Shown here piece by piece: positions 1,349-64,000 of a stretch of DNA of 64,000 bases. The translations under genes and the position numbers were made by a program. Source of the DNA: an uncultured Rhodothermaceae bacterium. GTDB lineage: Bacteria > Bacteroidota > Rhodothermia > Rhodothermales > Bin80. Under the pieces are notes generated by a model. The model saw only the letters and a program-made list of their open reading frames with translations, was not told the origin of the DNA and did no database searches. The first letter of the stretch is position 1. The number at the start of each line of letters is the position of its first letter. The stretch lies in contig CAZXEU010000121.1 of the NCBI GenBank assembly GCA_964639665.1, forward strand, positions 48,398 to 112,397, read 5' to 3'.

Positions 1349-1585
1349 ATGGCTCGGACCTGACAGGGTTGGTGGTGCGGCGCGTTTGGGATTACATTCG
1401 GGCAACCATGATACAGCCGGCGGGACCCGGATACGTACCTGGCCGATCCGGTGCGCTTCCGCAAGCCCAGGAGTGTCGGGGAGCGTAGCCGTTTCATAAA
1501 TTCCGGTGCCTCGATGGCGGCGCCTCGCGCATTCCGGCGCGCGGCCCGGGTGCTTGCGAAAACGAAATCACGCGCGCTGCGGACC

Positions 1586-39285: not shown

Positions 39286-39409
39286 GTGCCCTGCTACGGG
39301 GTATTGCAGGCGTGAACTCCGGCCCTGGCCCTCTACACCCGAGCGCCGCCTGCCAATTGCACTGTGGATTTCGTCTTACGCGCCTGCGCCGGCCACGACC
39401 CGATACCAA

Positions 39410-41590: not shown

Positions 41591-41672
41591 GATTGATTCC
41601 GTCGTGTTAAGTGATTGACAACGGGGTACTGGAGAATGGGCCGTGCAGGCGCACCTGTCCCCGGGATTGGGC

Positions 41673-42974: not shown

Positions 42975-43082
42975 GGTACGGGTATGGACTTGAGGATGGA
43001 CATCGCCTGTCGTGCACGGATCTGTACGGGCAGTATGCAGGGGTTTTCTCGGAAGAGGCGGTATTGTCGTGAGAATCGCACA

Positions 43083-43868: not shown

Positions 43869-43921
43869 GCAGACTGCAGATTATGGATGGCTGGACATGA
43901 GCACCAGACCGAGGCGGACCA

Positions 43922-46893: not shown

Positions 46894-49503
46894 CTAACTG
46901 CCGGCAGCTTCGACCACAAAAGTCGTGGCCTCGCCCTGCGGGAACACCATACCTCCTTCGAATTCCCGCTGCCCGAACCCGTTCAGGTCAAAACCGTCCA
47001 GCGTCAGGCTCCCGTTCAGAGGCTCTAGCGTCACCGTCCTCCGCCGGCCGCCGCCGGAAATCCCCACGATTCCATACTCCCTGCCATTGGACCAGAAGTA
47101 CTCGCCAGAGTGTGGATTGAAGCCCATGCGCGCATCTACTGCGGAGTATTGGAACCCCGTGTATGCCAAAATGCCTGCCCACGCCGCCATGGCTCTGGAA
47201 TACCGGTGACCGTATTCTCCCTCATTGAACGGGTTTCTCTTGTGTCCGTCATAGCGGTCCCGAATAGCTCTGAATACCTTCAGTCCTGAATCTACCTCGC
47301 CCTCGTAGATAAGGTGCGCGGCCGTGCTGTACTCAAACCCCGTCATGATCTCCGTGTAGTACGGAAACGGGAAATCCAGCAACTCGCCCCTCGGGTAGCT
47401 CGCCATGAGCAATCCGGCCTCGCTGCCCAGCCCGAAGCTTCGGAAGGTATTGAAGTGCTCGTTGAAGTCCTCGATGTAATTGTATTTCATGATGCTGCGG
47501 AGCGTCGTCTTAACGTGCTCCGGATCAAGCAGATACCCGAGCCCTGCGGTATGGGCCAGGTACTGGCCGACCAGTTGGTCCACCAGACACCCCTTGCCCA
47601 GCTGCGCCACCTTGCTGGTTCCCTCCGGGATATGGTGCTCGTAGTATTCCCCGTTGAAGATATTGTCGTCTATCCAGGCGCGGCCCCGCTCGAACAGGTC
47701 TCTCGTTTCGTCCGCGAAGGCATCGTCTCCCAGGTGCCTTGCCATTTCCTCGGAGGCACGCAGCGCGCCTAGGTACCAGCCAGCCATCTGGGGATTGGGG
47801 CCCAGATAATTGATGTCCATGGTGTTGTGCTGGCTGCCCTCCATCACGCCGTCCTTGTCCTGGTCCCAAACGCCTGTCCATGCGAAGCTCATGGCCTTGC
47901 GAATATTGGGCCAGAGATTTTCGAGCATTTCGTCATCGCCCGAAAGCTGCCAGTCACGGTACATCTTGATAAGCGTGCCCATCTGGCCGTCCGCCGCCCG
48001 GTTCTGGAAGCTTCTTGCACGGCTATCGATCGGGAGCCCGACGCGATAGCTCATGCCACCGTCGTCATTTACCGAGTGACGGAATTCCACTTCCCGAAAC
48101 TTGAGTGCCAGATCGCCAAACAGGAAGGGAGTAGTCGACTCGTAATTCCACACGTGGAAGCACGTGCCAAAGCCCCATCCGGAGCTTTTGGAAGCACCAA
48201 TCGTGGTTCCCTGGATGCTGCCGGTTCCCTCGAATCCGAATGGAAGCCCATCGGCCGTTCGGAAGACCGTTTGGCTGCGCAGGTTGTTTAGATTGAACAG
48301 ACCCGCCTCTTTCAAGACGTCTGGCGCATCGCTCTCGACTAGCGCGCGAACAAACTGCACCGTCTCGGCTTCCAGCTCTTCCAGTTGGGCCCCCATCTGC
48401 TCGGCCACGGCCCAGGCATCGTCGTAGAGCGTCGTGTAGTAGTTACCGACAATTTCGGTCCCCCCGTATGCTCCCGCATGGTGGACGCCGTGATCCCAGG
48501 CGCGGCGATTCGGGAAATGCCAGGTCAGAAGAAACGTGACCTCTCTGGTCTGGCCGGGCTCAAGGTCAACCTTAACGGCCAGGGTCGCAGGCGGAGTCTG
48601 AATGGCGCGCGCCGTGTCCGGATGGTCGGTCAACTCACCGTCTGCGATGAAGTCATCCCAGAATTCACGGAAGGTCCAATTCCAGCCCAGCGGCGCCCAG
48701 GATGTTCTGTGCGAGACCATACCCGGGCTATTGGTTGCCAGGGCCATGGTGCCCCAATTCACATCGAGTGAATCGACGCCTTCTGACGTCATGAATATGC
48801 CCGCAAGGCCACCCGCGACTCTATACTCATTAACGTTGTTGTTCGGTGCGCCCGTCCATCCATCCGCCCCGATATAATTTGGCACCATGCCCACAACTGC
48901 CGCCTCCAGTGCCTCGGCGGATTGGTTGGTAAGGACGTACCGCAGTACGGCGACCGGGATGCCGCTCTTGTCGGCGTCGCCTACGATGAGCGGGTTAAAC
49001 GCTTCGAGCCGCACGTCCACGGGTACGTCGGAGTGCTCGAACTGCACCTGGGCCAGCGGATAGGCTGCCGCAAACTTTGTGCTCTGAAAGCGCGGAAAAC
49101 CTGAATTGACCGCATCGGCGCCCCAGTCCCCGCTGTGCTCCCGCGCAGGCACCGGGCCTTCCAGTACACGGACCTCGCCCGACGTGTCGCTTTGGCTGTA
49201 GTAAAGGGCAAAGAAAGGGCCGTTGGCAATGGTCGGTAGCACAAGCTTGAACGCGGGCAGATAGCCAAGTGCCCCCCTGTTCATCAATTCCCAGTCGCGA
49301 AGATCCCCCCGGCCGCCAACCGAAACCGTGCCTGTGCCAATGCCTCCGAGTGGCATCGCGACTTCGTCCAGATACTGCCCCGAATACGTCCGGAGGACCG
49401 GCCAATCGGCATTCCACTTGGGTGACGTTGTTGGCTGGACGCACGACGATACTGCCAGAAGCAAGGCCCCGGCCAGAAGCTGTTGGAACCGCGAGTTCAT
49501 CAT
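46894..49503 (-). CDS. GH116-family (GBA2/DUF608-type) glycoside hydrolase, secreted
   Basis: It has the N-terminal [28 protein letters not shown] signature and a C-terminal (alpha/alpha)6 catalytic region. The lipoprotein-like signal [13 protein letters not shown] follows the ATG at 49503. Confidence 0.8.
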
Positions 49504-49609
49504 CTGCAGGGCCGTGCGGTTTTTGACAGTCTGGTCCCGAGTGTGCGTGCGGCCAGCCCCGGCGTGACACAAACCCGGGCAAGGGAGACGCTCGCGACCA
49601 ACAGTTTAT

Positions 49610-51160
49610 CTAGTGTCCGGGATTCTGCGTTACAACGCCTCCGGAGATATCGATTTCCAACTGCGGAATAGGATACACTAGGCGTTCCGGCGTCAGAGAG
49701 AAGCTGGTCGGGCCGCCATAATTGGAAATCCTCTGGAAGGTGCTTTGCTGCGCGTTCAATTGCGCGTTCATGATGGCGATCGTCTGCGCCTCGGGCAGCC
49801 GCAGTAGATCAAACCACCGGTGTGCCTCAAAGGCAAATTCCAATCTGCGCTCCTTCATCAGCTTCTCCATGAACGTGCCTGCCGTGCTCGCTTCGATATC
49901 CGGGAGCCCGGCTCGCCTTCGAACCTGGTTGATGAGGGAATACGATTCAGCCCCCTCTCCCACGGCCTCCGCCAGTGACAACAGCACATCGGCATACCGC
50001 AGCAAGACGAGATTCACGTCAGCGCCGTCCGACTCCGCACTCGTATCGATGAACTTGGTGATGTATCCGCCTGGTTCGCGGCCCGGGATGGTACCGAACG
50101 TATACGGAATTCTAAGATCGTTCGGGTCGTCGAAGGCATTGATCAAGTCCTGCGTGGCAAACGGAAAAAGGATCGCCCGTGTGGAGCCTCCGGCTACGAT
50201 ACCCAGGTCGTTGGCAACGCTCTGCGGAATAAAATGCTGCCGGAAGAGTCCGGTCTGATTCGCGGGGTTAAAGCTGACCTCGAAGATGGACTCTGCCGTA
50301 TTGTTGTTGCCGGGGCCGTGTATCATACCATAGTCGCTGAGCAGAGAGTATTCGCCGAGCACCGGGCGCAGGGCGGAAACCGCCGCTCCCGCATTGTCGC
50401 GCTGCAATTCCACCTTCCCGAGCAATGTCAGGGCAGCAAAGCGGGTGGCCCTGCCTACTTCGTTGCCGGCACTGCCGTCGTAGGTTCCGGGAAGCGCCGC
50501 CGCGGCTTCCGTGAGATCCTGCACGATCTGATCGTAGACCTGGGCCGCCGTGGAACGCTCCACTACAGTTTGCTCAAAATCATCGGTTGGCGTGATTCTA
50601 AGCGGTACGCCTCCCCAGAGATTGACCATGTGGTAGTAGGTAAACGCTCGAACGAATTTGGCTTCGCCTACGATGCGCCCGATAAGGCCCGCGTTTCCCT
50701 CGGCCTCCGGGCCTCGAACGATTACCGTGTTGGCCAGATTAATGCAGTTGTACATGGAGGCCCAAGTGATATCCAGCAGCAGGTTTCCGGGCACCTCCGC
50801 AAATATGTCCGTTGCCACACGCTCGGCCTGGTCCGTGTGGTCCAGGCCGGCATTGTCGGACCGTCCCTCCATAATGTTATAGATGGTCCCGCTCCCGTAA
50901 ATTGATCTTTGCGCGCCGTACACGCCGGTCATCCCGATCAGGAGCTCCTGATCGGTAGAAAAGAACGATGGAGCATCGATCCTGTCGACCGGCTCCACGT
51001 CCAGGAAGCTGTCACACGATGGCCCGGCCAAGAGAGCCAGGAGCGCAATAGCCAAGGCCCTCAGGCCGCGTACTGGAAAGTGTTGCCGATCATGCTGCAG
51101 TGAGGTTGGACCTCCATGCGCGGGCCCCGACGGCACTCTCGCGTTATTCCACGATTTCAT
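49610..51160 (-). CDS. susD: SusD/RagB-family nutrient-binding outer membrane lipoprotein
   Basis: It lies directly after susC. It has the lipobox LLAGPSC followed by DSFLDVEPVDRI, TPR-like helices, and RRLEFAFEAHRWFDLLR. Confidence 0.9.
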   Translation of the reverse strand: MKSWNNARVPSGPAHGGPTSLQHDRQHFPVRGLRALAIALLALLAGPSCDSFLDVEPVDRIDAPSFFSTDQELLIGMTGVYGAQRSIYGSGTIYNIMEGRSDNAGLDHTDQAERVATDIFAEVPGNLLLDITWASMYNCINLANTVIVRGPEAEGNAGLIGRIVGEAKFVRAFTYYHMVNLWGGVPLRITPTDDFEQTVVERSTAAQVYDQIVQDLTEAAAALPGTYDGSAGNEVGRATRFAALTLLGKVELQRDNAGAAVSALRPVLGEYSLLSDYGMIHGPGNNNTAESIFEVSFNPANQTGLFRQHFIPQSVANDLGIVAGGSTRAILFPFATQDLINAFDDPNDLRIPYTFGTIPGREPGGYITKFIDTSAESDGADVNLVLLRYADVLLSLAEAVGEGAESYSLINQVRRRAGLPDIEASTAGTFMEKLMKERRLEFAFEAHRWFDLLRLPEAQTIAIMNAQLNAQQSTFQRISNYGGPTSFSLTPERLVYPIPQLEIDISGGVVTQNPGH

Positions 51161-51179
51161 GGTCGCCTGGTTATAAGGG

Positions 51180-54100
51180 TTAATACGTTAAGTGGATGCC
51201 GGCCGTCCACACTCGCGGCAGTGGCAAGTGAGGAGGACTCGTCAATCCGATTTCCCTTCCGTCTCCTACACCGGGAATCCGGGATCCGCCGAAGAGGGAG
51301 GGGCCGCCCGCCGAATTCCGTCTACCTTCGGGATTGCCTCCAATGAAGCTTGTCCACATATGGACATTCTCCATAGACGTGTAGATTCTTCCACGGACGC
51401 CTCCGACGCCGAGTCCGCGAAGCAGACTTTGGGGCAGCGTGTAAGTCAACGTGACGTTGCGGAGTCGGAGAAAGTCTGTGTCCTGGATGCCAAGGCTCGA
51501 AACGGCACCAATACCGGTATCGAATCCCGAGGCGCTGGGCGTCTTGCCGTCGCCGGGCTGACTTTCCGATATGTACCGGCCATCGTACCAGAATTTCTTG
51601 GAAAGATTGACCCGGCGGAAAGGCGCACCGATTTGGATTATGTAGAGATCCAGGACGGAGGCACCCGCCTGGCCGTTGAATCGAACACTGAGGTCGAAAT
51701 TCTTGTACCGGACGTTGGTGTGGAATCCGTAGATATAGTCCAGATTCGTGCCTTCCAGATTCACGCCGTCCGGCCCCAGGAAGTTACTGATCGAACCGTC
51801 ACCGTCGGCATCTCTGTAGACCATCGTGCCGGGCTGCGCACCTGGCTGCGCCGGATGCGAGTCCCCTTCCCGCACGATGCCCACGTGCTCAACGACGTGG
51901 ATGTTCTGCAACTCACCTCCGACCGTGCGTCTTAGTGCACCGAAAAAGTTTCGGATCTCGTCATCCCCGCCCAAGTCCAGGATTTCCTGGTTGTTGTTGG
52001 TCACGTTGCCGCCCACTGTCCAGCCGAAATCACGGGTGTCCAATACGGAAACGGTGGCTGCCAGCTCGATGCCGTCGTTGCGCATGCTTCCGATATTGGT
52101 AAGAAAGCCGCCGTAGCCGGACGAGGCTACGATATTGCGAGACAGGAGTAGACTGGTGGTCACATTGTTGTAGTAATCCAGCACCATGCTGTAGCGGCCG
52201 TCCATGAGCGTCAGGTCGAGCCCGATGTCCAGCTGCTCCGACGTCTCCCAGGTCAGGCCAGGGTTGCCCGGGTCAGCGATGGCTACCCCGGTCAATTGCG
52301 TGGCCCCGAGCGCGTGATTGACTGGTCTTAGACTGGGTCGCGCAATGAAGTCCGGAATGGCGTTGCTGCCCGTGGAGCCGTACGACACACGCAATTTCGC
52401 GTCGTTGACAAAACCCAGCGCCTTGATGAATTCCTCCTCCGAGAGCCGCCACCCTAGTGCAAATGAGCCAAAGGTCTGGTAGCGATTATTGGCCCCGAAT
52501 CTAGAGCTCCCGTCCCGCCGTACCGTGGCTGTCAGCAGGTACCTGTCCCTGAATGAATAGTTGAGCCGCCCGAGAGCAGAGGCGATGGCGTTTTCGCCGA
52601 AGCCGTTGCTGGATGTGAGGGTCTCCGAATCGCCAATCGACAAGATCCGCGCACCCGGAATCTGCAGTCCTGCCACATTCGAGGAAACGAATTCCAATCG
52701 GTCTTGCTGCAAGGTGAAGCCAGCCAGCACGTCGAAGAAGTGATCCCGTCCGACCTGCCTGCGGAAATTGACCGTGTTTTCGTTCAGCCACCCCCTTTGC
52801 CACACCTGCCCCACGTTCAGCGTACTTACCGCCGGAAAGCTGAATCGGGGGGTGCCGGGAGGAGCGTCATACAGCGTTTCATTCTTGTTGGACCCGATAT
52901 TGGTGGACAAGATTGACTTGAGAATAATGCCGGCAACAGGCTCCACCTCCAGGCTTACGCCTCCCAGCATCCTGAACAGGTCGTGCGTGCGCTTGAAGCG
53001 CTCAATGGTCTGCAAGGGGTTGCCGATCGGGAAATTGCCCGGCACGTAGCTGCCGATGGCGTAAGATCCGTCGGGATTGTGGATGGGAATGATAGGGGGC
53101 AGCAGTATGGCCTGAGCCCACGCGGACCTCCAGTCGCTTCCATCCTCGCTGGGCGGACTGGACTTCAGGATCCTGGACACACTTGGTGCCACATTCAGCC
53201 CGAAGGTTATCCTGTCGTTGGGACGATAGTCCAGTTTGAGGCGAGCCCCGACCTTGTTATACCCCTCCTCAGGTATGACTCCGGCTTCTTCCGTATAGTT
53301 GCTTGAGAGCAGATAGGAGACTTTTTCGGTTCCTCCGTGCGCAGAGAGGGACCAGTTTTGAAACGGCGCCGATCGGTAGAGTTCATCCTGCCAGTCCGTA
53401 TCTGTGGCGCCGTCCCACACGCTCGAAATCCAGTCTGGTGTCACGCCGCCGTTTTTTTCCGTATGAAATTGCACGTATTCCGCGGCATTGAGCATTTCGA
53501 AACGCGAGCTAGTCGGGATACTCGACACGCCCGTGTTCATGTCAAAGTTGATTTGCGCCGTTCCGATGCGGCCCGACTTCGTGGTAACAATGATGACGCC
53601 ATTGGCCCCTCGAGAACCGTAGATGGCCGTTGCAGACGCATCCTTCAGCACGTCGATCGATTCGATATCCGCGGGATTGAGCATCTGGGCATTCCGCTGG
53701 TCAGTCGGAAACCCGTCGATTACCCACAAGGGCTCGTAGCCCGCCGAGAGGGTTCCGATGGCGCGGATCGAGATCTGAGCCAGATCACCCGGATTGGCAC
53801 TCCGGTCGGCCACGTTGAGGCCGGGTACAAGGCCTTGCAGGGCCTTCTCTACCGACGCGACGGGACGGGACTCAAAATCCGTAGCCGAAATAGAGACTAT
53901 TGACCCGGTGACGTCCCTGCGCAGCTGCGTGCCATAACCCGTGACGACAACCTCCTCGAGCCTCGCCACATCTTCCTCCATGACTACATCAATGGTGGTC
54001 CGTCCGTCTATGGCCACATCCTGCGTGACGAAGCCGATAAACGAGAATACCAGCGTGGTCGCGTCGTCGGGTACGGTAATCACATACTCTCCATCTATGT

Positions 54101-54314
54101 TGGTAGCCGTCCCGATATTGGTTTCCGCAAGGCGCACAGTCGCACCGCTCAGGGGATCTCCGTCGGTGTCTGTCACCGTGCCCGAAATGGTCACATCCGG
54201 GCTCGGCGCCAACGAGTCCCGCGACTCGCCGTAGGCCGGCGGCATTGCCAGGCCGATGCACAGCACGAGGAGAGCCGGCAGTCCGGATATCTTGCAGTGG
54301 CGTTCAGCATCCAT
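51180..54314 (-). CDS. susC: SusC/RagA-family TonB-dependent outer membrane transporter
   Basis: It has the carboxypeptidase-regulatory-like domain ISGTVTDTDGDPLSGATVRL..TNIGTATNIDGEY, the plug VVVTGYGTQLRRDVTGSI, and ATAIYGSRGANGVIIVTTK. It is 1044 aa. Confidence 0.95.
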   Translation of the reverse strand: MDAERHCKISGLPALLVLCIGLAMPPAYGESRDSLAPSPDVTISGTVTDTDGDPLSGATVRLAETNIGTATNIDGEYVITVPDDATTLVFSFIGFVTQDVAIDGRTTIDVVMEEDVARLEEVVVTGYGTQLRRDVTGSIVSISATDFESRPVASVEKALQGLVPGLNVADRSANPGDLAQISIRAIGTLSAGYEPLWVIDGFPTDQRNAQMLNPADIESIDVLKDASATAIYGSRGANGVIIVTTKSGRIGTAQINFDMNTGVSSIPTSSRFEMLNAAEYVQFHTEKNGGVTPDWISSVWDGATDTDWQDELYRSAPFQNWSLSAHGGTEKVSYLLSSNYTEEAGVIPEEGYNKVGARLKLDYRPNDRITFGLNVAPSVSRILKSSPPSEDGSDWRSAWAQAILLPPIIPIHNPDGSYAIGSYVPGNFPIGNPLQTIERFKRTHDLFRMLGGVSLEVEPVAGIILKSILSTNIGSNKNETLYDAPPGTPRFSFPAVSTLNVGQVWQRGWLNENTVNFRRQVGRDHFFDVLAGFTLQQDRLEFVSSNVAGLQIPGARILSIGDSETLTSSNGFGENAIASALGRLNYSFRDRYLLTATVRRDGSSRFGANNRYQTFGSFALGWRLSEEEFIKALGFVNDAKLRVSYGSTGSNAIPDFIARPSLRPVNHALGATQLTGVAIADPGNPGLTWETSEQLDIGLDLTLMDGRYSMVLDYYNNVTTSLLLSRNIVASSGYGGFLTNIGSMRNDGIELAATVSVLDTRDFGWTVGGNVTNNNQEILDLGGDDEIRNFFGALRRTVGGELQNIHVVEHVGIVREGDSHPAQPGAQPGTMVYRDADGDGSISNFLGPDGVNLEGTNLDYIYGFHTNVRYKNFDLSVRFNGQAGASVLDLYIIQIGAPFRRVNLSKKFWYDGRYISESQPGDGKTPSASGFDTGIGAVSSLGIQDTDFLRLRNVTLTYTLPQSLLRGLGVGGVRGRIYTSMENVHMWTSFIGGNPEGRRNSAGGPSLFGGSRIPGVGDGREIGLTSPPHLPLPRVWTAGIHLTY

Positions 54315-55003: not shown

Positions 55004-56248
55004 CTAGTTGTCAAGCGCAGACGCAATTTCCTCCAGCGACTTGCCCAGCGTCGCTAGCGCTATTTGGTCCAACGCTTCCGCCGGTCCCTGCAGGTGGATG
55101 GTCCTGTGCAAGTGCATGTACGAATGGCCGGGCGCGAGCGCCATTGCGGGCGACGATGTTTCAAGTTCGTAGGACGGGCCCAGGGGCGGCACGCCGGGCG
55201 CCGGCGGACCATCGTTGTAGCTGTTGATCACATCGCCCGAGAAGGGATCATCCTGCAATTCCCACATGGAATTGACATAATCTGTGGCTTCTTCCGGCAA
55301 GTTGAACTGAACCAGGGTCAGAACGCCGCTGGCGCTGTCGAAGCTGCCAAAAGTGGGTACACTTCGCGCCTTCGACATTCCGATCTTGCTGCGGTATTCA
55401 CCATCTCCGCTGAAGTACACTACATCCTCGTCCATTGCGAGCCTGTCAGCAGGCACTTCGCCGAAATAGGCCGCATTCACAATGGGCCCCAGTGCCTCCT
55501 CGCTGCCTGGCCGATAGGGAATCACCACGGTTGTCGACGGCGAGGGATTGTACATCCCCAGAATCCAGATCGAAAGCAGACCCCCCTCTTTCGTCCAGGC
55601 TTCGCTTCCCGTGTTTGTAACCGTATTTGCTGTTTCGAACGCAACGGCGTCTACCGCAGGGGCAACCTCCAGACCCATGTGCTGCGCAATGGTTGGCCTG
55701 TCAAGCAGCCGCACTTCACGGTCAACGCGCAAATCAAATTGAGTACCCGAGTAGTTCGTCAGCTGTATGTCCTTCTCGAAGGAAACCCGGTCCGGCTCCT
55801 GTTCCACTACGGAATAGGGGTCCCAGTCAATGGCAGCCGGAACGTACCAGTGGTCTAGATCAAACGGATCTCCCGCCTTGAAATAGATGGAGAATTGCCC
55901 ACCTTCCGGTCCCAGCCAGAAGCGATCTTCGCCGCCAAACACATTGATGTGCTCTTGCCGCTCTCCGGAAGCGATGATCTCGCGGTTGATCCAGCCGAAG
56001 CTTGGCCCGTCGTCGCCTGATGCCGTACTTGTCAGCACACGTCCCTGCATCGCCGGGCTTACCGCGACTTTCGCAAGTCCGGCCGAGTCCGAGAGCATCA
56101 CCAGATCCGTGTGAGCAGCCAAAAATGCTGCGTCGTCTCCAAAGGTAGACATGCCGACATCCGGGTTGTCTGGCATCACATTCTCAGATTGGTCGCAGGC
56201 CCAAAGGAGGACCAGCAGCAGCAGGGTGAGTATGTAGCGGTAGCGCAT
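55004..56248 (-). CDS. Uncharacterized PUL-encoded lipoprotein (414 aa)
   Basis: It has the lipobox MRYRYILTLLLLVLLWAC (ATG at 56248). The body looks beta-rich (FGGEDRFWLGPEGGQFSIYF, DLRVDREVRLL, SYELETSSP). I recognised no catalytic motif. A mutarotase-like beta-sandwich is a guess only. Confidence 0.6.
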   Translation of the reverse strand: MRYRYILTLLLLVLLWACDQSENVMPDNPDVGMSTFGDDAAFLAAHTDLVMLSDSAGLAKVAVSPAMQGRVLTSTASGDDGPSFGWINREIIASGERQEHINVFGGEDRFWLGPEGGQFSIYFKAGDPFDLDHWYVPAAIDWDPYSVVEQEPDRVSFEKDIQLTNYSGTQFDLRVDREVRLLDRPTIAQHMGLEVAPAVDAVAFETANTVTNTGSEAWTKEGGLLSIWILGMYNPSPSTTVVIPYRPGSEEALGPIVNAAYFGEVPADRLAMDEDVVYFSGDGEYRSKIGMSKARSVPTFGSFDSASGVLTLVQFNLPEEATDYVNSMWELQDDPFSGDVINSYNDGPPAPGVPPLGPSYELETSSPAMALAPGHSYMHLHRTIHLQGPAEALDQIALATLGKSLEEIASALDN

Positions 56249-56416
56249 GGCTTCCTCCATCGATTTCATATTCGAAAATAGCACAGATCTCAAACTCTGC
56301 AGATTCCGGCAAACACTCCTGTACGTGACAGCCACGGACAGAGCCTCCGCGGCCTGCGGGGAATCCACCCGTGCAATCGGGATGATCGTGGCGCCGGGGA
56401 GACAGCGACAGGAGCT

Positions 56417-59134
56417 TCATGGCCGGATCGTGATCGGGAAGGCCGCCAGCTGGGCCCTTGTCAGAGCAACGGGAGCCTCATTTCCGATTACGAGGTTGAA
56501 TGAACCCTCGTCCGGCAGCCCGTCAACCCGTAGAAGCGCACTGTAAGAGGCGTCGTGAGGCACGGGCAGGGCGGCAAGCAGCCGGGAGAGCTGAATGCGC
56601 AGCGTACGGCCTTCCAGCGCGTACCCGGCGACAGCCAATCCGTCCACGCCCACGGCCAGGTCCCGCTCGACATCCACATGAATGCCTCCCAGCTGCCGCA
56701 GCACATCAGCCGCAGCTACAAGTCCTCCCACCTCGGCCCAACTCGGGCCGGAGCGAAGCGGAGTCTGAGGGAATCCTTCATGGTCAATATTCTCCGGACC
56801 CAGCCCCAGCGGGAACGTGGGAGCGTTGTAGATGCCGTTTTCGACGTGCCGGGGATGCGTGACAAGCGCCAGCGAGGATCGGGCCGCCGCTACACCTCGC
56901 TCCATGAGATCCTGGCGTCCGGTCAATAGGCCCAGTTGCACCAGGATGCCGGCGAACCGGTGGTCCCGCTGATCAAGCCATTCCGCGTCACCAATCTGCG
57001 AGGTAAAGCCGCCAAAGGGGTAGGCCGTTATTATGAAATGAGGCGCCCAGACGGCCTGCATTAGACTGGCATAGTCCGCCACCTCCTCGGCTGCCTCCAG
57101 ATACCGGCGCTCACCTGTGGTTTCGTACATTGAAACAAACCCCTGGAGCGCCCAGGACATGGACATGGCGTTTCGCGGCGGCTGCCCGGTCCGCGTGTCA
57201 AAGAACGTCTCCGGCTTGACCGCGCACGAATAGAGCGCCTCGAAGTCAATCCAGCGGTGTGTGGGCAGGACTTCGTCCAGCAAGAACTCTGCGGCTCGCA
57301 CGGCAGCCTGCCTGAAGCGGTCCTCACCCGTGGCGCGAAACAGTTCGCTCAAGACCCAGGCGTGTGCGCCGCCGTCCGCATTCCACCGCATGCTCAGACG
57401 CGGCTCGAGGTTCTCGTCAAACCACGCGGGCACGCTCCCGTCGGGCGCCATACGCTCAATCAGGAAGTCGCCGAATCGCCTGACATACGCGACAATGCGC
57501 GGATCCTGGTCATACAGCCGATGCACCTGCATGAGATAGCCCGCCGTCACGCTTGCCGAGGCGGTCTGGTAGTCGCCGTCTTCCCAGTTCCAATACGTCC
57601 GCGTCTCGTCCGGATCGTACTCCGGCCCGGGAAATCTCCACATGCTGCGTTTCCAATGACGCTCCTGGAGGTCGTAAAGCGAGGGGAAGAGTCCATCGGC
57701 TTGCGGCGCCGACAGTGTCAGGTTCACAATCCGCCGCGCCTTGTCGACAAGCGAGTCGTCGCCCAGCTGGCGTCCCCAGAAATAAAGTCCCGTCGCGTCC
57801 GCCACGTTGTTCCACCACGCCGTGTTGTAAGCCAAGTGAAACCACTGGGGCGCCGTAAGGCGCAATGCCCCCATCGGCTCGCCTCCTTCTTCCCACTGCT
57901 GCCACGTTTCCCAGGCTGCCGGACCGGCGGGATCCCGGTGTACCATTTCCGGCATGCCCCCCGGATGCTCAACGGTGTAGCCCTTGTATTCGAATGAGGC
58001 GGGGTATAGTATCCTGGCATAGTCGGCAAATGGCATGGCCTGCGGACGCGGCTGCCGGACATAGTGTCTTCCGTAGCGCTCCCAAAGGAAGGCTGCCGTC
58101 TGCCGGTAACCCCATGTGGGCACCGCATCGGCGCCCAAAAGAAGGTCCATTCCGTACTGTACAACATTGTCGGAAAGCGTACGGACCAGCGTACCTCCTG
58201 CGTTCTCGTGGCGCCAGTAGACGTGCTGCTCTGCGATGACATCCATCATGCCATAGGCCAAAAGCGGAGCACTGGTCATGCCGGAGGACAGCTCCAGGTC
58301 CAGCACAGCCGGCAGGGATATCCGTGACGAGTCAATGGGAACTCCGAATATCCAGCGGTGCTTCTGCGGCCGGGCGCCCTCTGCATACACAACCTTGTCG
58401 TTAATCTGGTCAAGATCCGGCACTACTGCGGCATAGACCGAATCCGTCTGCACGATGGCGGCGGGAGAAAAGAATACCCGGTCTGCTACCACATCGCCGG
58501 GCGAGCGCTTGTATGCCGGGAGGTGGCTGAAATCCGGCGTGCCAGACTCGGAGAATTCGAACGGGGACAGCAGGTACTCAAGGCGCGGCGGATCACCTCG
58601 CAGCTCGCCCTGCACGTCTATGTGCACGGAGCGCTCGCCGGCGCGCAGCACAATAGTCTGCGAAACGTGCGCAATTTCGGTCTCGCCGGACAGCACGACC
58701 CGGGCTTCGTCGGGCCCTCGCGTGATTACTACCAGCTTGGTCAGCACTTCCGGCACGATGATTCGATACGGCTCTGCTACGCGCAGTGCACGCCCGTGCT
58801 CATTGGAGCGGTCAAGATATAGCTCTGTCGTATTGGTGGGCCGGGGACTCGGCGGGTGAAATGCCCTCGCGACCGGCACCCACTGCCCGTTTCTTGCCGC
58901 AAGAAAGGCTTGCCTAATCCCCTCGGAGCCCGGCTCGAGAACGACCTTTACGAACTCATTCGCCATCTCGACCCTCCCGTCCGCCTCCACCACCGCTACC
59001 TGTCCCGCAGCCTGTCCGGCCACAGTCATGCAAACGGCACTGCACAGGCTAAGGCGCAGCAGGATAATCGCCGTGCGTCCCGGTACGTGATCTGCTACCC
59101 GACGCGACACTCTCTTGCACTTGGTTTCATACAT
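56417..59134 (-). CDS. Uncharacterized large secreted protein (905 aa) with a probable (alpha/alpha)6-toroid core flanked by beta-sandwich regions
   Basis: It has a signal-like N-terminus (AIILLRLSLCSAVCMTVAGQAAG). The central region is rich in W/Y-capped helical hairpins (ASVTAGYLMQVHRLY, GGAHAWVLSELFRATGE, MSMSWALQGFVSMYETTGE, RFAGILVQLGLLTG). I recognised no CAZy family signature. Confidence 0.6.
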   Translation of the reverse strand: MYETKCKRVSRRVADHVPGRTAIILLRLSLCSAVCMTVAGQAAGQVAVVEADGRVEMANEFVKVVLEPGSEGIRQAFLAARNGQWVPVARAFHPPSPRPTNTTELYLDRSNEHGRALRVAEPYRIIVPEVLTKLVVITRGPDEARVVLSGETEIAHVSQTIVLRAGERSVHIDVQGELRGDPPRLEYLLSPFEFSESGTPDFSHLPAYKRSPGDVVADRVFFSPAAIVQTDSVYAAVVPDLDQINDKVVYAEGARPQKHRWIFGVPIDSSRISLPAVLDLELSSGMTSAPLLAYGMMDVIAEQHVYWRHENAGGTLVRTLSDNVVQYGMDLLLGADAVPTWGYRQTAAFLWERYGRHYVRQPRPQAMPFADYARILYPASFEYKGYTVEHPGGMPEMVHRDPAGPAAWETWQQWEEGGEPMGALRLTAPQWFHLAYNTAWWNNVADATGLYFWGRQLGDDSLVDKARRIVNLTLSAPQADGLFPSLYDLQERHWKRSMWRFPGPEYDPDETRTYWNWEDGDYQTASASVTAGYLMQVHRLYDQDPRIVAYVRRFGDFLIERMAPDGSVPAWFDENLEPRLSMRWNADGGAHAWVLSELFRATGEDRFRQAAVRAAEFLLDEVLPTHRWIDFEALYSCAVKPETFFDTRTGQPPRNAMSMSWALQGFVSMYETTGERRYLEAAEEVADYASLMQAVWAPHFIITAYPFGGFTSQIGDAEWLDQRDHRFAGILVQLGLLTGRQDLMERGVAAARSSLALVTHPRHVENGIYNAPTFPLGLGPENIDHEGFPQTPLRSGPSWAEVGGLVAAADVLRQLGGIHVDVERDLAVGVDGLAVAGYALEGRTLRIQLSRLLAALPVPHDASYSALLRVDGLPDEGSFNLVIGNEAPVALTRAQLAAFPITIRP

Positions 59135-59211
59135 CGAACCGCTCCTGTTCTTTCTGGTCAATTCCGGTTGCTCATACTGCCTACCCGGCAAGCTTCCGCC
59201 CTGGCCGCGCG

Positions 59212-60720
59212 TCACCGGGGAGCGACATCACGGCCCAGGTCTTGGTGATTCTGCTGCGTGCGCAAATGCCGAAGGCTTCTGCGGTCGTCCATCATGTGCT
59301 CGATGGGGTGCTGGTCCGAGCCAGTGCTGTTCCACGAGCCCAACTCGGCTCGCGCGCGGTCTGCCTCGGCCAGCAGCCGGCCTACAATGTCGGGGTGCCG
59401 TGCAGCCACATCCTCGGTCTCGCCCGGATCCTCCTGCAAATCAAAGAGCAAGGGGGAATCAAGTTCGCGCATGCCCGAATCCCACCAGACCAGCATTTCT
59501 TCCGTTCGCGGGAGGTGCAGTTTCCATCGTCCTTCTCGCACCGCCTGGAGATTCAACCCGTTATAGTAGTAGAGAATGCGAGGTTCTGCCTCTGCAGTCG
59601 CGTGCCCAAACAGCTCCGGGCTCAGGTCCATGCCATCAATAACACGGCCACGCGGCAGCGCTGCGCCTGTTATCGCCGCAATGGTCGGCAGTATATCCAT
59701 CGCGCTAGCCATGGCTTCGATCGTTATTCCAGAGGAAAGGCGAGCGGGCCAGCGCATCAGGCACGGCACGCGCATGCCACCTTCGAAGGTGCTGCCCTTT
59801 CCAGCACGCAACACACCGTTGGAGCCGTACGCTCTGGATGCAGCGGATCCGTTGTCCGAAGTAAAGATTACCAGCGTGTCTGCTGCTTTGTCCGACTCGT
59901 CGAGCCAGCGCAGTATTTCGCCGGTGCTCCAGTCCAGCTCTTCCACCATGTCGCCGTAGACACCGCCGGGTGACCTTCCCGCAAACCTCGGATTGGGCAT
60001 CCAGGGCGCGTGCGAACGCGTGTGTGGAAAATACAGGAAGAACGGTCGCCCGGAATCAGTTCCCATGAAGTCCAGTGAGCGGCGCGTGAAGTGCTCCGTG
60101 ATCGTAGTGACGTGCGCATCAGGATCGACGATGCCGTTGTTTTCCAGCAGCGCCGTCGAGCCGTCGGGATGGGTGTTTCCCACCATGCCGTGAAACAGGT
60201 CAAACCCGTGCCTTACAGGATGGAACTGCGAATCGGACGTAAATCCGGAATGCGTCTTGAAATCGAACCCCTGGGGAAAGCCCAGATGCCATTTGCCGAT
60301 GCAGGCCGTCCTGTAGCCGGCCTGCTTCAGGAGTCGGGCGATGGAAATCTCGCTCTCCTCCAGTCCGAGATCCGTATAGACGCCGCCCACGGCGAACGGC
60401 ATTCCGCACCGCGACGGGTAGCGGCCCGTGAGCAGTGACGCCCGCGAGGGGCTGCACACCGAACACGCGGACTGGTAATCCGTGAACCGAATCCCTTCCT
60501 CCGCCAGACGGTCCAGGTTGGGCGTCCGGATAGTTCGGGATCCGTAGCTGCCCAGATCGCCGTATCCGAGGTCATCGGCCAGGATAAGGACTATGTTGGG
60601 GCCCGCTCGCCGCGGTGCTCCGCCCCAGCAGCCGGCGGCGGTTGCCGCAGCCGCAAATGCAGCCGATCGCAAGAAACTTCGCCGGCTTACTCGCGAGGTG
60701 ATGCCGTTCCAGCTAATCAT
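59212..60720 (-). CDS. Sulfatase (S1, Cys-type formylglycine), Tat signal
   Basis: It has the twin-arginine signal SRRSFLRSAAF, ILADDLGYGDLG, and the CSVCSPSRASLLTGRYPSR (C-x-P-x-R) motif. The ATG at 60720 lies inside the ankyrin gene's 3' end (8-nt overlap). Confidence 0.9.
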   Translation of the reverse strand: MISWNGITSRVSRRSFLRSAAFAAAATAAGCWGGAPRRAGPNIVLILADDLGYGDLGSYGSRTIRTPNLDRLAEEGIRFTDYQSACSVCSPSRASLLTGRYPSRCGMPFAVGGVYTDLGLEESEISIARLLKQAGYRTACIGKWHLGFPQGFDFKTHSGFTSDSQFHPVRHGFDLFHGMVGNTHPDGSTALLENNGIVDPDAHVTTITEHFTRRSLDFMGTDSGRPFFLYFPHTRSHAPWMPNPRFAGRSPGGVYGDMVEELDWSTGEILRWLDESDKAADTLVIFTSDNGSAASRAYGSNGVLRAGKGSTFEGGMRVPCLMRWPARLSSGITIEAMASAMDILPTIAAITGAALPRGRVIDGMDLSPELFGHATAEAEPRILYYYNGLNLQAVREGRWKLHLPRTEEMLVWWDSGMRELDSPLLFDLQEDPGETEDVAARHPDIVGRLLAEADRARAELGSWNSTGSDQHPIEHMMDDRRSLRHLRTQQNHQDLGRDVAPR

Positions 60721-61333
60721 TTTGGGCCTCCGTCTGTGCGCCACGCCCATGCCTGCGCAGCAAATCGGCGACATGGTCATGACCGTAATGCGTTGCCAGT
60801 CCCAAGGGCGTTGCCCCGCTGCCTGTCGCGGAGCTCTCCAGCGCCCCTGCAGCGATGAGTTCGCGTGCCAGTTCAAGGCTTCCGCTGAAGGCTGCCCAGT
60901 GTAGCGGGGTCCAGTCCTGCGCAGCGCTACGGGCCGTGATCTCGGCACCGGCGGCCATAAGCAAGCGCGCCGTGCCTGCCTGTCCCGCCATGGCGGCGCG
61001 CAAGAGCGGAGTCCAGCCATCGATGCCCCGCGCATTTACATCGGCACCGCGATCCAGAAGCAGGGCCGTCATCTCTTCATGGCCCAGCTTTGCCGCCCGG
61101 TGCAGGGGTGTCCAGCCGCCGGCTCCCGCCTCATCGATGCTCGCCTCCGCCTCCAACAGAGCACGGGCGACGGCTACATGACCCCGAGCCGCAGCGCGGT
61201 GCAGCGGAGTCCAGTCTCCCTCGAATTCGTTGACTTCCGCTCCAGCCGCCACGAGAGAATTGACCTCCTCAAGGTCACCCGTATCCGCCGCCCGATGGAG
61301 CGCGTCCACAGCCTGATCACGTCTACTTGCCAT
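60713..61333 (-). CDS. Ankyrin-repeat protein (about 5 repeats), no signal peptide seen
   Basis: It has repeated G-WTPLHRAA-x-GH-x4-LL-x2-GA-x-VN units: DWTPLHRAAARGHVAVARALLEAEASID, GWTPLHRAAKLGHEEMTALLLDRGADVN, GWTPLLRAAMAGQAGTARLLMAAGAEI, and DWTPLHWAAFSG. Confidence 0.85.
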   Translation of the reverse strand: MASRRDQAVDALHRAADTGDLEEVNSLVAAGAEVNEFEGDWTPLHRAAARGHVAVARALLEAEASIDEAGAGGWTPLHRAAKLGHEEMTALLLDRGADVNARGIDGWTPLLRAAMAGQAGTARLLMAAGAEITARSAAQDWTPLHWAAFSGSLELARELIAAGALESSATGSGATPLGLATHYGHDHVADLLRRHGRGAQTEAQND

Positions 61334-61372: not shown

Positions 61373-62977
61373 TCAAGGAAATACCTGATCATAGTGGTCG
61401 TTATACCACTGCAGTTCAAGCCGCTCCCGCGCGTCCAGGCCAGTCTGGCGGTTCAGTACCTGGTACCGGTACTGACGGAAAAGACGCAGGTCATCCTGCA
61501 TACTGCGGCTGGCTTCCCGCCAGTGATCACTCCCGTGCCATGCCTTTGGATCTGGGTAATCCGGATGGGAGAATCCGGTTGGCCTGACCGCGGACCCGCG
61601 TACGCCGTAATCGCCCAGCTCCGCCCTTGCCAGGTCGGCCAGCGCCTCCAGGCGCGCAACTACCTCGGGATGCTGCGCTGCCACGTCCCGCTGCTCTCCA
61701 ATATCCTCCCGCAGGTTATAGAGCTGCGGCGAATCGATCAGGGTCGTATTCACGGCAAGCCAGCCGGCGCACTCGCCGTAGATACCCTCGCGCGGCTCGG
61801 GCCGTGCGAGATGCAGCTTCCACGGGCCAGCCCTCACGGCCTGAAGCCATGTACCCGCGTAGTAATAGTAAACATCGTGTGGGCTGGCGCCATTGGCACT
61901 GCCCGTTATCAGCGGCCAGAGATTCTTGCCGTCGATAGTCCGATCCTGCGGCACCTGGGCACCGGCCAGGTGCGCAACCGTGGGCAGGATGTCCATGATT
62001 GTTGCCAGTTCCGTGCAGACGGTGCCAGCTGGAATACGCCCGGGCCACCGCATTACGCACGGGACCCTTACGCCTCCTTCCCACGTGGTGAGCTTGGCAC
62101 CGCGCAGAGGGGCGGCCGAGCCCGACTGATCGTCAAATCCCAGCCAAGGCCCGTTGTCAGACGTAAAGATGACGAGCGTGCGGTCATCCATCCCGAGGTC
62201 TCGCAGGCAGTCCAGGATCAGTCCGGTGCACCAGTCGATTTCCTCGATGGAATCCCCGTACAGACCCGCCGCCGAAGTGCCCGAAAATTCCTTTCCGGGA
62301 TAGATCGGCACGTGCGGCATGGGGTGCGCCAGGTACAGGAAGAACGGCCGCTCTCTGCTGCGCTCGATAAAGCGAATGGACTCTTCGGTGTAGTCCTGGG
62401 TAAATCGAAAGAAATCCGGCCTCTCCGTCAGCTTCCTGTCATTGTAGAAAAGCGGAACCGCGAAGTTTTCAAAAGGCTGCGTGCCCGTAACCATGCGAGT
62501 CCCGTAGAAGAAGTCGAAACCCTGTCTGTTGGGCGCAAAGACATCGTCCTGACCCAGATGCCATTTGCCAATACAGGCTGTAGCGTATCCCTCCTGCTTC
62601 AGCATGTCGGCTATTGTTACCTCGTCTGGACTCATGCCGAAAGGAGCGCCGTAGAGATGCACATCGGGCACTCCGGCCCTTACCGGATAGCTACCGGTCA
62701 GAAGAGCGGCCCGCGAAGGCGAGCATATCGGGCTGACGTAAAAGTCTGTAAACCGGATGCCTTCCGACGCCATTTGATCTATTCGCGGCGTGCGGATGTT
62801 TGGTGACCCGTACACACCCAGGTCGTTGTAGCCCTGGTCATCCGTGAAGATGACTACAAAGTTGGGCGGCTCTCCAGAAGCTGGCCGGCAAGCCTTTAGC
62901 AAACCGGCCAGCGCCAGTGAGGCACTTCCGGCAACAGCAGTGCGAATAAACTCGCGCCGGCTCGTTATAGTGGGCAT
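61373..62977 (-). CDS. Sulfatase (S1, Cys-type), Tat signal
   Basis: It has SRREFIRTAVAG, IFTDDQGYNDLG, and the PICSPSRAALLTGSYPVR motif. The ORF-track start at 62983 is TTG. The first ATG is at 62977, 2 nt after the upstream stop. Confidence 0.9.
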   Translation of the reverse strand: MPTITSRREFIRTAVAGSASLALAGLLKACRPASGEPPNFVVIFTDDQGYNDLGVYGSPNIRTPRIDQMASEGIRFTDFYVSPICSPSRAALLTGSYPVRAGVPDVHLYGAPFGMSPDEVTIADMLKQEGYATACIGKWHLGQDDVFAPNRQGFDFFYGTRMVTGTQPFENFAVPLFYNDRKLTERPDFFRFTQDYTEESIRFIERSRERPFFLYLAHPMPHVPIYPGKEFSGTSAAGLYGDSIEEIDWCTGLILDCLRDLGMDDRTLVIFTSDNGPWLGFDDQSGSAAPLRGAKLTTWEGGVRVPCVMRWPGRIPAGTVCTELATIMDILPTVAHLAGAQVPQDRTIDGKNLWPLITGSANGASPHDVYYYYAGTWLQAVRAGPWKLHLARPEPREGIYGECAGWLAVNTTLIDSPQLYNLREDIGEQRDVAAQHPEVVARLEALADLARAELGDYGVRGSAVRPTGFSHPDYPDPKAWHGSDHWREASRSMQDDLRLFRQYRYQVLNRQTGLDARERLELQWYNDHYDQVFP

Positions 62978-62979
62978 TC

Positions 62980-64000
62980 TCAATTTTCGCCTCGGATTAG
63001 TCGGTGGTCAAGCCGCCCGGTACGGTGGCTCGCTTCGGAAGGCCAGGCAGCGGAGCCCAAAGGACGCGTATTTCGCCCGCGCGTGCCGGTTGCCGCGTCG
63101 CCAAACATCTCCCGTGCCCGCTGCGCTTCGGACTTGAGCTTGTCCACCAGATCAGGGTGCTGGGCGGCCACATTCTGACTCTCGCCTGGATCCTCATCCA
63201 AGTTGTAGAGCCGGGCGGAAGAAAACGGCTCCCTGTGGGCTTCCTTGACCACAAGCTTCCAGGGACCAGAACGGACGGCGTGCAATTCGTCCATCCACAG
63301 ATAATAGAATACGTCGTATGGCGTGTGCGCCGTCGCCGGATAGGACATCAATGGCCAGATGTCCTTTCCGTCTGGAGGGTGCTCGCGCGGCAGGGTGACC
63401 CCTGCCAACCCTGCCAATGTCGGCAACAGGTCCATGGTAGTGGCCAGCGCGTCGCAGCGGCTGCCAGCCGGTATGCGCCCCGGCCACCGCATGAGGCACG
63501 GCACGCGCATGCCTCCTTCCCACGTATTGCCCTTCCCTGCGCGTAGCACGCCGTTGCTGCCCCTTCCCTCGGTTGCCGCATTTCCGTGATCAGACGTAAA
63601 TATGATAAGCGTACTTCGATCAAGACCGGACGCCGAGACTGCGTCCAGCAGCAGCCCCGTGCAGTGATCAATGAGTTCTACGCAAGCGCCGTATGCGCCA
63701 TTGCGGCTGTGGTCAAGAAACGATGGCGGAACCAGATGCGGACCGTGCGGCAGCGTATGAGCAAAGTAGAGAAAGAAAGGGCTCGCGCGGTGCTCTCGCA
63801 CGAAGTCTATGGATTCAGACGTAAATCGCTGCGTCAACAAGCTGCGATCAGGATTCAACTCGACTACATTCTCGTCCCGGTAAAGCGGCAGAGGAGGAAA
63901 GTTGAACCGCGCGCTATTGGGGTGGTCCGGCGCGATGTCGTGGCTGTACGGAAGACCAAGGAAGCTGTCGAAGCCCTGCCGGGTCGGCAAAAAGGAAGGA
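62980..64000 (-). CDS. Sulfatase, 5'-truncated by the window edge
   Basis: The C-terminal two-thirds of a sulfatase fold is present (FTSDHGNAA, GKGNTWEGGMRVPCLMRWPGRIPAG, LYNLDEDPGESQNVAAQHP). It is paralogous to the two downstream sulfatases. The N-terminus and CxPxR motif lie beyond position 64000. Confidence 0.85.
   Translation of the reverse strand, partial: PSFLPTRQGFDSFLGLPYSHDIAPDHPNSARFNFPPLPLYRDENVVELNPDRSLLTQRFTSESIDFVREHRASPFFLYFAHTLPHGPHLVPPSFLDHSRNGAYGACVELIDHCTGLLLDAVSASGLDRSTLIIFTSDHGNAATEGRGSNGVLRAGKGNTWEGGMRVPCLMRWPGRIPAGSRCDALATTMDLLPTLAGLAGVTLPREHPPDGKDIWPLMSYPATAHTPYDVFYYLWMDELHAVRSGPWKLVVKEAHREPFSSARLYNLDEDPGESQNVAAQHPDLVDKLKSEAQRAREMFGDAATGTRGRNTRPLGSAAWPSEASHRTGRLDHRLIRGEN

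Follow-up and report, generated by a model that had tools for sequence, protein, structure and literature searches.

An ankyrin-repeat protein gene conserved beside a twin-arginine-type sulfatase gene in Rhodothermales-like bacteria, and its possible role as an enzyme-specific accessory

In the DNA of an uncultured Rhodothermaceae bacterium, we analysed a stretch of 64,000 nucleotides (GenBank assembly GCA_964639665.1, contig CAZXEU010000121.1, positions 48,398 to 112,397; the whole of this stretch is referred to as the window), in which ank, a gene for a small ankyrin-repeat protein, lies between two sulfatase genes, sulfA upstream and sulfB downstream. Our results suggest that Ank is probably a dedicated partner of SulfB, and a physical interaction between the two proteins appears quite likely. 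Regarding its mode of action, the reading that we favour, with a probability of about 0.38, is that Ank binds SulfB specifically and leaves the cytoplasm together with the folded precursor, as a hitchhiker on the pathway of twin-arginine translocation (Tat); an escort of SulfB that stays in the cytoplasm is considered less probable.

Results

Conservation of the ank-sulfB pair

Gene contexts were drawn from three independent sources, namely protein look-ups, a scan of GTDB genomes and a scan of metagenomes. Ank belongs to a sharply bounded orthologue group, whose members show 52-94% identity; everything else falls at or below 48% and consists of generic ankyrin proteins. The ank gene is found directly upstream of sulfB in all 14 of the 14 distinct lineages of SulfB orthologues examined (SulfB identity 61-94%), and the same block occurs, with 94-97% protein identity, in a GTDB metagenome-assembled genome labelled Rhodothermales. 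Across orthologous loci, Ank proteins are 62-75% identical, compared with 73-83% in the case of SulfB and about 80% in that of SulfA. Among 80 metagenome ankyrin loci recovered by family-specific motifs, sulfB lies downstream in each of the five orthologous ones, and no sulfatase gene is located near any of the roughly 75 generic ones. The original prediction for this DNA had offered the adjacency of ankyrin and sulfatase genes across genomes as a check on a functional link, and on this point it is well supported. It had also called ankyrin proteins uncommon among bacteria, which proved too strong: the metagenome scan contains dozens of them, many with lipoprotein or Sec signals.

The surroundings of the pair differ among lineages. 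Most Rhodothermales-type loci display the order sulfA-ank-sulfB-p932-DUF6786. In loci L020 and L006, a DUF1295 gene stands before a run of ank, sulfB and a gene for an anaerobic sulfatase-maturating enzyme (anSME), with extra sulfatase genes ahead of ank in L006, and in locus L018, of 40% GC, ank-sulfB is preceded by genes for GH172 and a SASA esterase. These three contexts span 40-64% GC, and sulfB is the sole invariant neighbour of ank. The identity of the gene that follows sulfB in L020 (L020:7412-8869, plus strand) as an anSME is given by the models NF010308 (533.8 bits, cut-off 484) and TIGR03942 (517.6 bits). At its C-terminus, this anSME also bears a SEC-C motif (PF02810, E=2.3e-9), which is unusual in an enzyme of its kind.

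The protein lists that came from the word-indexed search are not exhaustive, as the index misses known members, such as L007, L015 and L018; a word-indexed search with a broader alignment, including L018 and L020, returned no new Ank orthologues. When 1.84 billion representatives were searched with a profile of the orthologues, the output was swamped by giant multi-repeat ankyrins and contained no family members. In a full-text literature search, no paper was found that combines ankyrin and sulfatase with polysaccharide utilisation or with twin-arginine.

Structure, conserved groove and selection of Ank

The ank open reading frame (ORF) runs on the minus strand from an ATG at 61333 to a TAG at 60715-60713. 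Its product matches the Pfam models Ank_2 (PF12796; E=8e-52, 174.2 bits against a cut-off of 27.3) and Ank (PF00023; E=2.3e-39, 131.6 bits against a cut-off of 21.1). An AlphaFold2 model, with an alignment of ten orthologues as input, reaches a predicted local distance difference test (pLDDT) of 92.2 and a predicted template modelling score (pTM) of 0.87, and shows 12 helices that make up six helix-pair repeats. Both the Pfam models, above their cut-offs, and the stacked helix-turn-helix solenoid of the predicted fold place Ank in the Pfam clan Ank. Foldseek superimposes the model on six-repeat designed ankyrin repeat proteins (DARPins) with template modelling (TM) scores of 0.88-0.94 and a root-mean-square deviation of 1.2 Å. 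The motif xWTPL[HL] is canonical in four of the repeats, the remainder being an N-cap and a C-cap, and the earlier count of about five canonical repeats was therefore close. No similarity to the Tat-chaperone families TorD/DmsD and NapD was detected, Pfam and NCBIfam giving ankyrin models only.

The N-terminus of Ank in the window, MASRRDQAVDALHRAADTGD, is hydrophilic, its top 12-residue Kyte-Doolittle window scoring -0.73, which agrees with the original prediction of a protein without signal peptide. The TGA that ends the upstream sulfatase gene (61375-61373) shares the frame of ank and lies 13 codons before its ATG, and none of these 13 codons is ATG, GTG or TTG. Given the in-frame stop, the lack of a start codon in between and the lack of a hydrophobic stretch, a cryptic N-terminal signal is excluded for this protein. 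The original prediction had named such a signal, or an alternative start, as an outcome that would speak against it; this is dismissed for the window protein, but a signal peptide is predicted in two orthologue lineages, as described below. In lacking an export signal of its own, Ank of the window resembles a hitchhiker-type passenger.

In 18 orthologues, signal-bearing or not, the residues that line the groove are invariant or nearly so: W41, W74, W107 and W141; K82, M115, F149 and H182; S150 and Y183. They correspond to positions 5, 13 and 14 of the repeat. Invariant positions account for 8 of the 30 on the binding face and for 0 of the 30 on the back face. As the groove is alike in signal-bearing and signal-less forms, these data argue for the same ligand throughout the Ank family. 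The tryptophan that precedes TPLH in four repeats was considered as a special feature, a 'tryptophan ladder', and rejected, given that Trp occupies this place in 36% of related generic ankyrin repeats.

The ratio of nonsynonymous to synonymous substitution rates (dN/dS), computed on unsaturated pairs, is 0.145 for ank between the window and L007, 0.233 between L001 and L010, and 0.21-0.25 between L003 and both the window and L007; for these pairs, the values of sulfB are 0.12-0.16. With values from 0.145 to about 0.25, ank behaves as a functional gene under purifying selection.

The ank/sulfB junction

As the original prediction had read it, the last 8 nt of ank, ATGATTAG (60720-60713), overlap the start of the downstream sulfatase gene, the sulfB ATG at 60720-60718 on the minus strand lying within the sequence common to both genes. 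An overlap of the form ATGNNTAR is kept in 9 out of 10 orthologous junctions, most of which also have a GGAGG or AGGAGG element. In the signal-less ank lineages, the genes overlap or abut, with spacings of -8, -4, -1 or +3 nt, and the signal-bearing forms show gaps of +15 and +62 nt. The start of sulfB is placed at 60720 on account of the conservation of this junction, the position of the Tat motif and the GGAGG element. A mechanically delimited sulfB ORF (59212-61035, minus strand) reaches an ATG at 61035, 105 codons further upstream, crossing ank in another frame. The sulfC/sulfA junction also overlaps, by 4 nt. A scan of the operon for promoters and terminators returned counts at chance level.

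The export route of SulfB

Both genes that flank ank encode proteins with PF00884 (E=3e-57 and 5e-61; 194.7 and 207.1 bits), and both products carry CSPSR, so that SulfA and SulfB are Cys-type enzymes and, with PF00884 and C/S-x-P-x-R together, S1 formylglycine-dependent sulfatases. By motif they are also Tat-type (SRRSFLR in SulfB, SRREFIR in SulfA), and the description of ank as a gene between two Tat-type, Cys-type sulfatase genes is thus upheld. In SulfB, the twin-arginine motif occupies residues 12-18 (60667-60687) and precedes a hydrophobic region, after which comes a lipobox-like Cys31; the formylglycine cysteine is Cys89 of CSPSR (60454-60456). As far as a motif-level prediction goes, SulfB has the traits expected of a hitchhiker's partner, a twin-arginine signal and, judged by the 8-nt overlap of the genes, co-expression with the passenger.

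All SulfB orthologues of at least 61% identity have the motif RRxF[LIM], after which come a hydrophobic region and a Cys. Classical signals of Sec or lipoprotein type are found in the next tier of homologues, which show 51-57% identity and belong mostly to Bacteroidales. Tat-like signals occur in 57 of the 120 closest SulfB homologues; 17 of the 120 are orthologues, all of them Tat-type. Outside the orthologue clade, gene context was read for one homologue, P0139, which is of Sec/SPII type and has 56% identity to SulfB. Its Bacteroidales locus is homologous to the one studied here, with GH116, DUF6786 (53%), a p932-like protein (45%) and a GH106 rhamnosidase, and contains no ankyrin by tblastn at E<=10. 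The SulfB clades with and without ankyrin do not differ in their formylglycine motif, CSPSRASLLTGRY. Ank tracks the Tat-type SulfB clade and not sulfatase chemistry, the Sec-type side being represented by the single context of P0139.

Two further observations concern the relatives of SulfB. When the C-termini of P0138-P0151 are compared with window positions 59212-59300, the Sec-type homologues are seen to end in an extra stretch of about 25-30 aa (e.g., TTPEINLYYWEIAKENRRKKLEELS), which the Tat-type, ankyrin-associated clade does not have. In addition, P0142, a close SulfB relative from Acidobacteria bacterium AH-259-O06, has an annotated start, MKAIGLSAATLVMAG, resembling the hydrophobic stretch of a Tat signal from which the gene call removed the RR part.

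Orthologues with predicted export signals

Two lineages of Ank orthologues are predicted to be exported. Ank of L018 starts with MKMKLQFISIVLITFLMTAC, followed by GSQKN, a predicted lipoprotein-type signal. Ank of L020 starts with MKKMHRIREVR-FVAAMLVTCMLLAALTI-QDRPDE, a long hydrophobic anchor, and L020, L006 and P0008 share a start of the form M(K/E)K..RIRE(V/I)R-F/YVAAMLVTCMLLAALTIQ-DRPDE. Because the N-flank of this anchor is strongly positive and the C-flank acidic, an N-in, C-out orientation is predicted for L020, L006 and P0008. The ankyrin domain should therefore be periplasmic in L018 and in the L020-type lineages. The best 12-residue hydropathy amounts to 2.55-2.65 in the signal-bearing forms versus at most 1.0 in 15 signal-less loci, in each of which an in-frame stop lies 1-16 codons from the first possible start. 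By these predictions, a cytoplasmic location does not hold across the Ank family. The two lineages are deep-branching: in neighbour-joining trees, L018 is the most divergent, followed by L020 and L004. The sulfA gene lies upstream of ank only in lineages with a signal-less ank, and is absent from that place in L018 and L020.

The surrounding locus

The coordinates of the features are collected in Table 1. The genes for the SusC-like, SusD-like and GH116 proteins (46894..54314) define a polysaccharide-utilisation locus that encloses ank. It adjoins a rhamnose or fucose catabolism cluster (38620-45535, minus strand), which comprises genes for an isomerase-like protein, class II aldolases, an MFS permease and a bifunctional RhaD rhamnulose-1-phosphate aldolase/dehydrogenase (1041 bits). 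Since rhamnose genes adjoin the locus and its Bacteroidales counterpart contains a GH106 rhamnosidase, the substrate is likely a sulfated, rhamnose-containing glycan.

Table 1. Features of the ank-sulfB region and of the enclosing locus (window coordinates)
Feature	Position	Strand	Description	Basis
ank	60713..61333	-	206-aa ankyrin-repeat protein, six helix-pair repeats, without signal peptide	ORF, Pfam, AlphaFold
ank/sulfB overlap ATGATTAG, 8 nt	60713..60720	-	ank stop TAG inside the first sulfB codons	
GGAGG	60728..60732	-	Shine-Dalgarno-like element of sulfB, located within ank, 7 nt upstream of the sulfB ATG	
sulfB	59212..60720	-	502-aa S1 sulfatase, conserved partner gene of ank	
sulfA	61373..62983	-	536-aa S1 sulfatase, Tat motif SRREFIR (62942-62962), CSPSR	
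sulfC	62980..64000	-	third sulfatase, runs past the window end	
p932	56417..59215	-	932-aa conserved locus protein, without family assignment, downstream of and co-directional with sulfB	
DUF6786 protein	55004..56368	-	conserved locus member	
SusC-like TonB-dependent receptor	51180-54314	-	polysaccharide-utilisation locus	
SusD-like protein	49610-51160	-	polysaccharide-utilisation locus	
GH116	46894-49572	-	polysaccharide-utilisation locus	

A full-length copy of sulfC in L007 begins with MLRRDFIQ and is Tat-like. At the sites read for this pattern (window 60628-60720 and 62890-62983, minus strand; L007:6801-8354), each of the operon's three sulfatases has both a twin-arginine motif and a Cys that ends the hydrophobic region (AAGC, LKAC and LSAC), and from these motifs they may be Tat-dependent lipoproteins. 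To our knowledge, such lipoproteins would be uncommon among the enzymes of Bacteroidota-type utilisation loci.

The p932 protein belongs to no Pfam or NCBIfam family, and the sole clues come from weak similarities to Pec_lyase, GH127 and GH88 (E 0.015-0.06). A homologue with 45% identity occurs in the Bacteroidales locus L099 (L099:12056-13584), and p932 accompanies SulfB and DUF6786 in Rhodothermales and Bacteroidales loci alike. We regard it as a candidate for a new family of glycan-active enzymes.

In a Pfam scan that covered 42 window ORFs with 200 aa or more, picked by hand as likely genes with 26 overlapping or shadow ORFs left out, neither a formylglycine-generating enzyme (FGE, PF03781) nor a radical-SAM/SPASM protein was found, and tblastn with the L020 anSME gave no match in the window; the earlier statement that the window holds no maturase gene is in agreement with both results. 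No catalase was found among the scanned ORFs either. Elsewhere in the window, the gene for DnaE (DNA polymerase III alpha, 1357 aa; 1451-5524, plus strand) shows an Intein_splicing match at residues 831-951 (E=4.6e-17), and the insertion, which separates the finger domain from the HHH domain, represents a mini-intein within a gene of replication.

Discussion

Made without an export signal and from a gene that overlaps the start of sulfB, Ank of the window is expected to meet the SulfB precursor in the cytoplasm. There, it would dock by its concave groove on SulfB already folded and formylglycine-modified; the complex would then cross the inner membrane via the Tat translocase, the twin-arginine signal of SulfB serving both proteins; and in the periplasm, where the signal-bearing orthologues must act, Ank would be an accessory or stabilising subunit of SulfB. 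If some members of the family are exported, as predicted, the function common to the whole family cannot be that of a purely cytoplasmic chaperone. In this regard, a partner that acts in the periplasm accounts for both states only if SulfB carries the signal-less form out, and co-export is favoured for this reason. Candidate roles for Ank include stabilising a form that was folded in the Ca2+-poor cytoplasm, positioning the enzyme and modulating it. The original prediction of a dedicated cytoplasmic partner in folding, maturation or proofreading is consequently retained as regards a dedicated companion of SulfB and not supported as regards a purely cytoplasmic one, because of the predicted export signals in two lineages.

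With respect to the history of the signal, a single loss of an ancestral export signal is the most parsimonious course, and an ancestrally exported Ank is favoured on this ground. A single loss also agrees with the fact that many of the closest generic relatives are ankyrins of lipoprotein type. That Ank was once exported by its own Sec or lipoprotein signal, lost it, and now rides on the twin-arginine signal of the sulfatase is a tentative proposal, which we hold with less assurance than co-export as such; extant lineages would then preserve both states of the transition. It is also possible that the ancestor was cytoplasmic and that a signal was gained twice, independently, the two signal types being non-homologous.

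Several points weigh against co-export and against the proposed loss of the signal. Binding, co-export and an effect of Ank on SulfB are what we infer from the data above; the comparison with Sec-type homologues consists of one context, that of P0139; and no docking insertion specific to the Tat clade is seen in the catalytic core of SulfB, the C-terminal extension of the Sec-type clade (about 25 aa in this comparison) being the one difference between the two. The 8-nt overlap of ank and sulfB is weak evidence when taken alone, as overlaps are common in the operon. Moreover, the known Tat hitchhikers are mostly redox-cofactor enzymes, and SulfB is a hydrolase without redox cofactor. Regarding the exported forms, an internal ATG at the L018 lipobox makes a signal-less protein possible, internal ATGs at codons 16 and 21 leave the start uncertain in L020, and the DNA of L020 and L006 is about 95% identical even upstream of ank, a comparison with no power on whether the extension is coding. 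The trees lend moderate support: bootstrap values in the SulfB tree are 68% for the signal-less clade and 92% for the crown clade, the placement of L018/P0137 being unstable (20-58%), and in the Ank tree L004 joins L020 at 57%. On balance, translation of the N-terminal extensions is favoured because of the protein-level conservation among L020, L006 and P0008 and because the L018 frame stays open for 42 codons in DNA of 40% GC.

Among the other explanations, the one that comes closest is an escort confined to the cytoplasm, in which Ank would bind pre-SulfB during folding or formylglycine formation, or shield its Tat signal, and would be released at the translocon to stay inside. It is in keeping with the absence of a signal, or of room for one, in the window and 15 loci in all, with the position of ank immediately upstream of sulfB and overlapping it, and with the occurrence of ank beside the Tat-type SulfB clade only, the homologous Sec-type locus having none; additionally, the ank-sulfB-anSME operon of one lineage ties the pair to maturation, and no maturase gene is found in the window by the ORF scan and tblastn. 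We nonetheless rate it below co-export, though as a serious competitor, given that the two deep lineages with predicted export signals, in which Ank could not act on SulfB before export, keep both the groove residues and the adjacency to sulfB, that the formylglycine motif is the same with and without ankyrin, and that Ank is unlike any known family of Tat chaperones. A further but weak argument against it is that nearly half of the nearest SulfB homologues (57 of 120) are Tat-type and ank was found beside the orthologue clade only, the one other context read being that of the Sec-type P0139. Less probable again is a gene that is merely co-transcribed with sulfB and serves another target, whether a protein of the locus, a glycan or a regulator, its adjacency reflecting inherited synteny or block transfer. 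Most orthologous loci do belong to one Rhodothermales group with synteny of the whole block, and Ank evolves somewhat faster than its neighbours SulfB and SulfA. However, the pair persists through three contexts and from 40 to 64% GC while its surroundings change, sulfB alone always adjoins ank, and ank is under purifying selection of a strength similar to that seen in sulfB.

The conserved groove would also suit a regulator, an inhibitor that masks the active site of folded SulfB until its destination, or a tether that positions the enzyme at the membrane. Being folded in the cytoplasm, Tat substrates could already be active there (PMC6708511), and Ank is predicted to be a lipoprotein in L018 and membrane-anchored in L020. 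An inhibitor of a catabolic sulfatase has no precedent known to us, though, and exported orthologues would inhibit SulfB precisely where it is needed; a tether should be superfluous to an enzyme with a lipobox-like Cys of its own, and these possibilities are accordingly rated as improbable. As for an ankyrin effector aimed at a host or prey through a specialised secretion system, the NCBIfam matches to Legionella Dot/Icm Ank effectors are weak and repeat-driven, that to AnkH scoring 70.8 bits against a cut-off of 600, and the cut-offs of the effector families range from 450 to 1400. The gene sits in a glycan-utilisation operon of an environmental Rhodothermales, and no secretion-system genes were found in the window by Pfam scans. 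The failed cut-offs and the gene context effectively refute this explanation, and we grant it hardly any probability.

The nearest functional analogues of Ank are the ankyrin proteins paired with catalases, of which a published account lists AnkB-KatB in Pseudomonas aeruginosa, AnkB-CatB in Xanthomonas, Cj1386-KatA in Campylobacter and ank-katE in Leptospira; they are reported there to interact with the partner enzyme and to promote its activity, and AnkB is described as periplasmic (PMC10294975). Like Ank, they are small stand-alone ankyrin proteins encoded in the same operon as one enzyme, and the periplasmic location of AnkB matches that predicted for the L018 and L020 orthologues. Unlike the catalase ankyrins, Ank has a formylglycine sulfatase as its partner, so the haem-trafficking role proposed for them is inapplicable here, and unlike AnkB, Ank of the window has no signal peptide. 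The resemblance is thus one of logic only.

Hitchhiking of signal-less proteins on a Tat-targeted partner is well established (PMC10924467, PMC4273604). As in the Ank-SulfB pair, a signal-less protein is encoded beside a twin-arginine partner in HybO-HybC (hydrogenase-2), FdnGH (formate dehydrogenase) and PaoABC, and export of a folded complex would explain how a protein without signal acts in the periplasm. The predicted co-export of Ank would differ from these cases in the nature of the passenger, a repeat-protein scaffold in place of a subunit of a redox enzyme. Tat chaperones such as TorD, DmsD and NapD are likewise cytoplasmic, signal-less, substrate-specific and encoded with their cognate Tat substrate. 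Their folds are unrelated to that of Ank, however, SulfB has no inserted metal cofactor, and some Ank orthologues are predicted to be exported. In the tyrosinase 'caddie' pair MelC1-MelC2 of Streptomyces, helper and enzyme form a complex in the cytoplasm and exit together via Tat, the helper having the Tat signal and loading copper. In contrast, the Tat signal of the present pair is on the enzyme, SulfB, and no cofactor-loading role is evident for Ank.

Sulfated glycans are degraded largely through S1 sulfatases, enzymes that are difficult to produce in an active state, and we know of no sulfatase accessory protein besides the formylglycine maturases. Ank may be an enzyme-specific bacterial ankyrin accessory and possibly a Tat hitchhiker. 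If true, a conserved, lineage-specific ankyrin partner would represent a new type of sulfatase accessory factor, which may be of use in producing these enzymes heterologously. Should Ank be co-exported, hitchhiking would no longer be confined to redox-cofactor enzymes, and the signal-bearing and signal-less lineages would provide a natural test of the way in which a partner can lose its own signal; if Ank is instead a cytoplasmic escort, it would constitute a structurally new class of substrate-specific Tat chaperone. Either way, Ank joins the few ankyrin proteins of bacteria whose roles are housekeeping and not host-directed.

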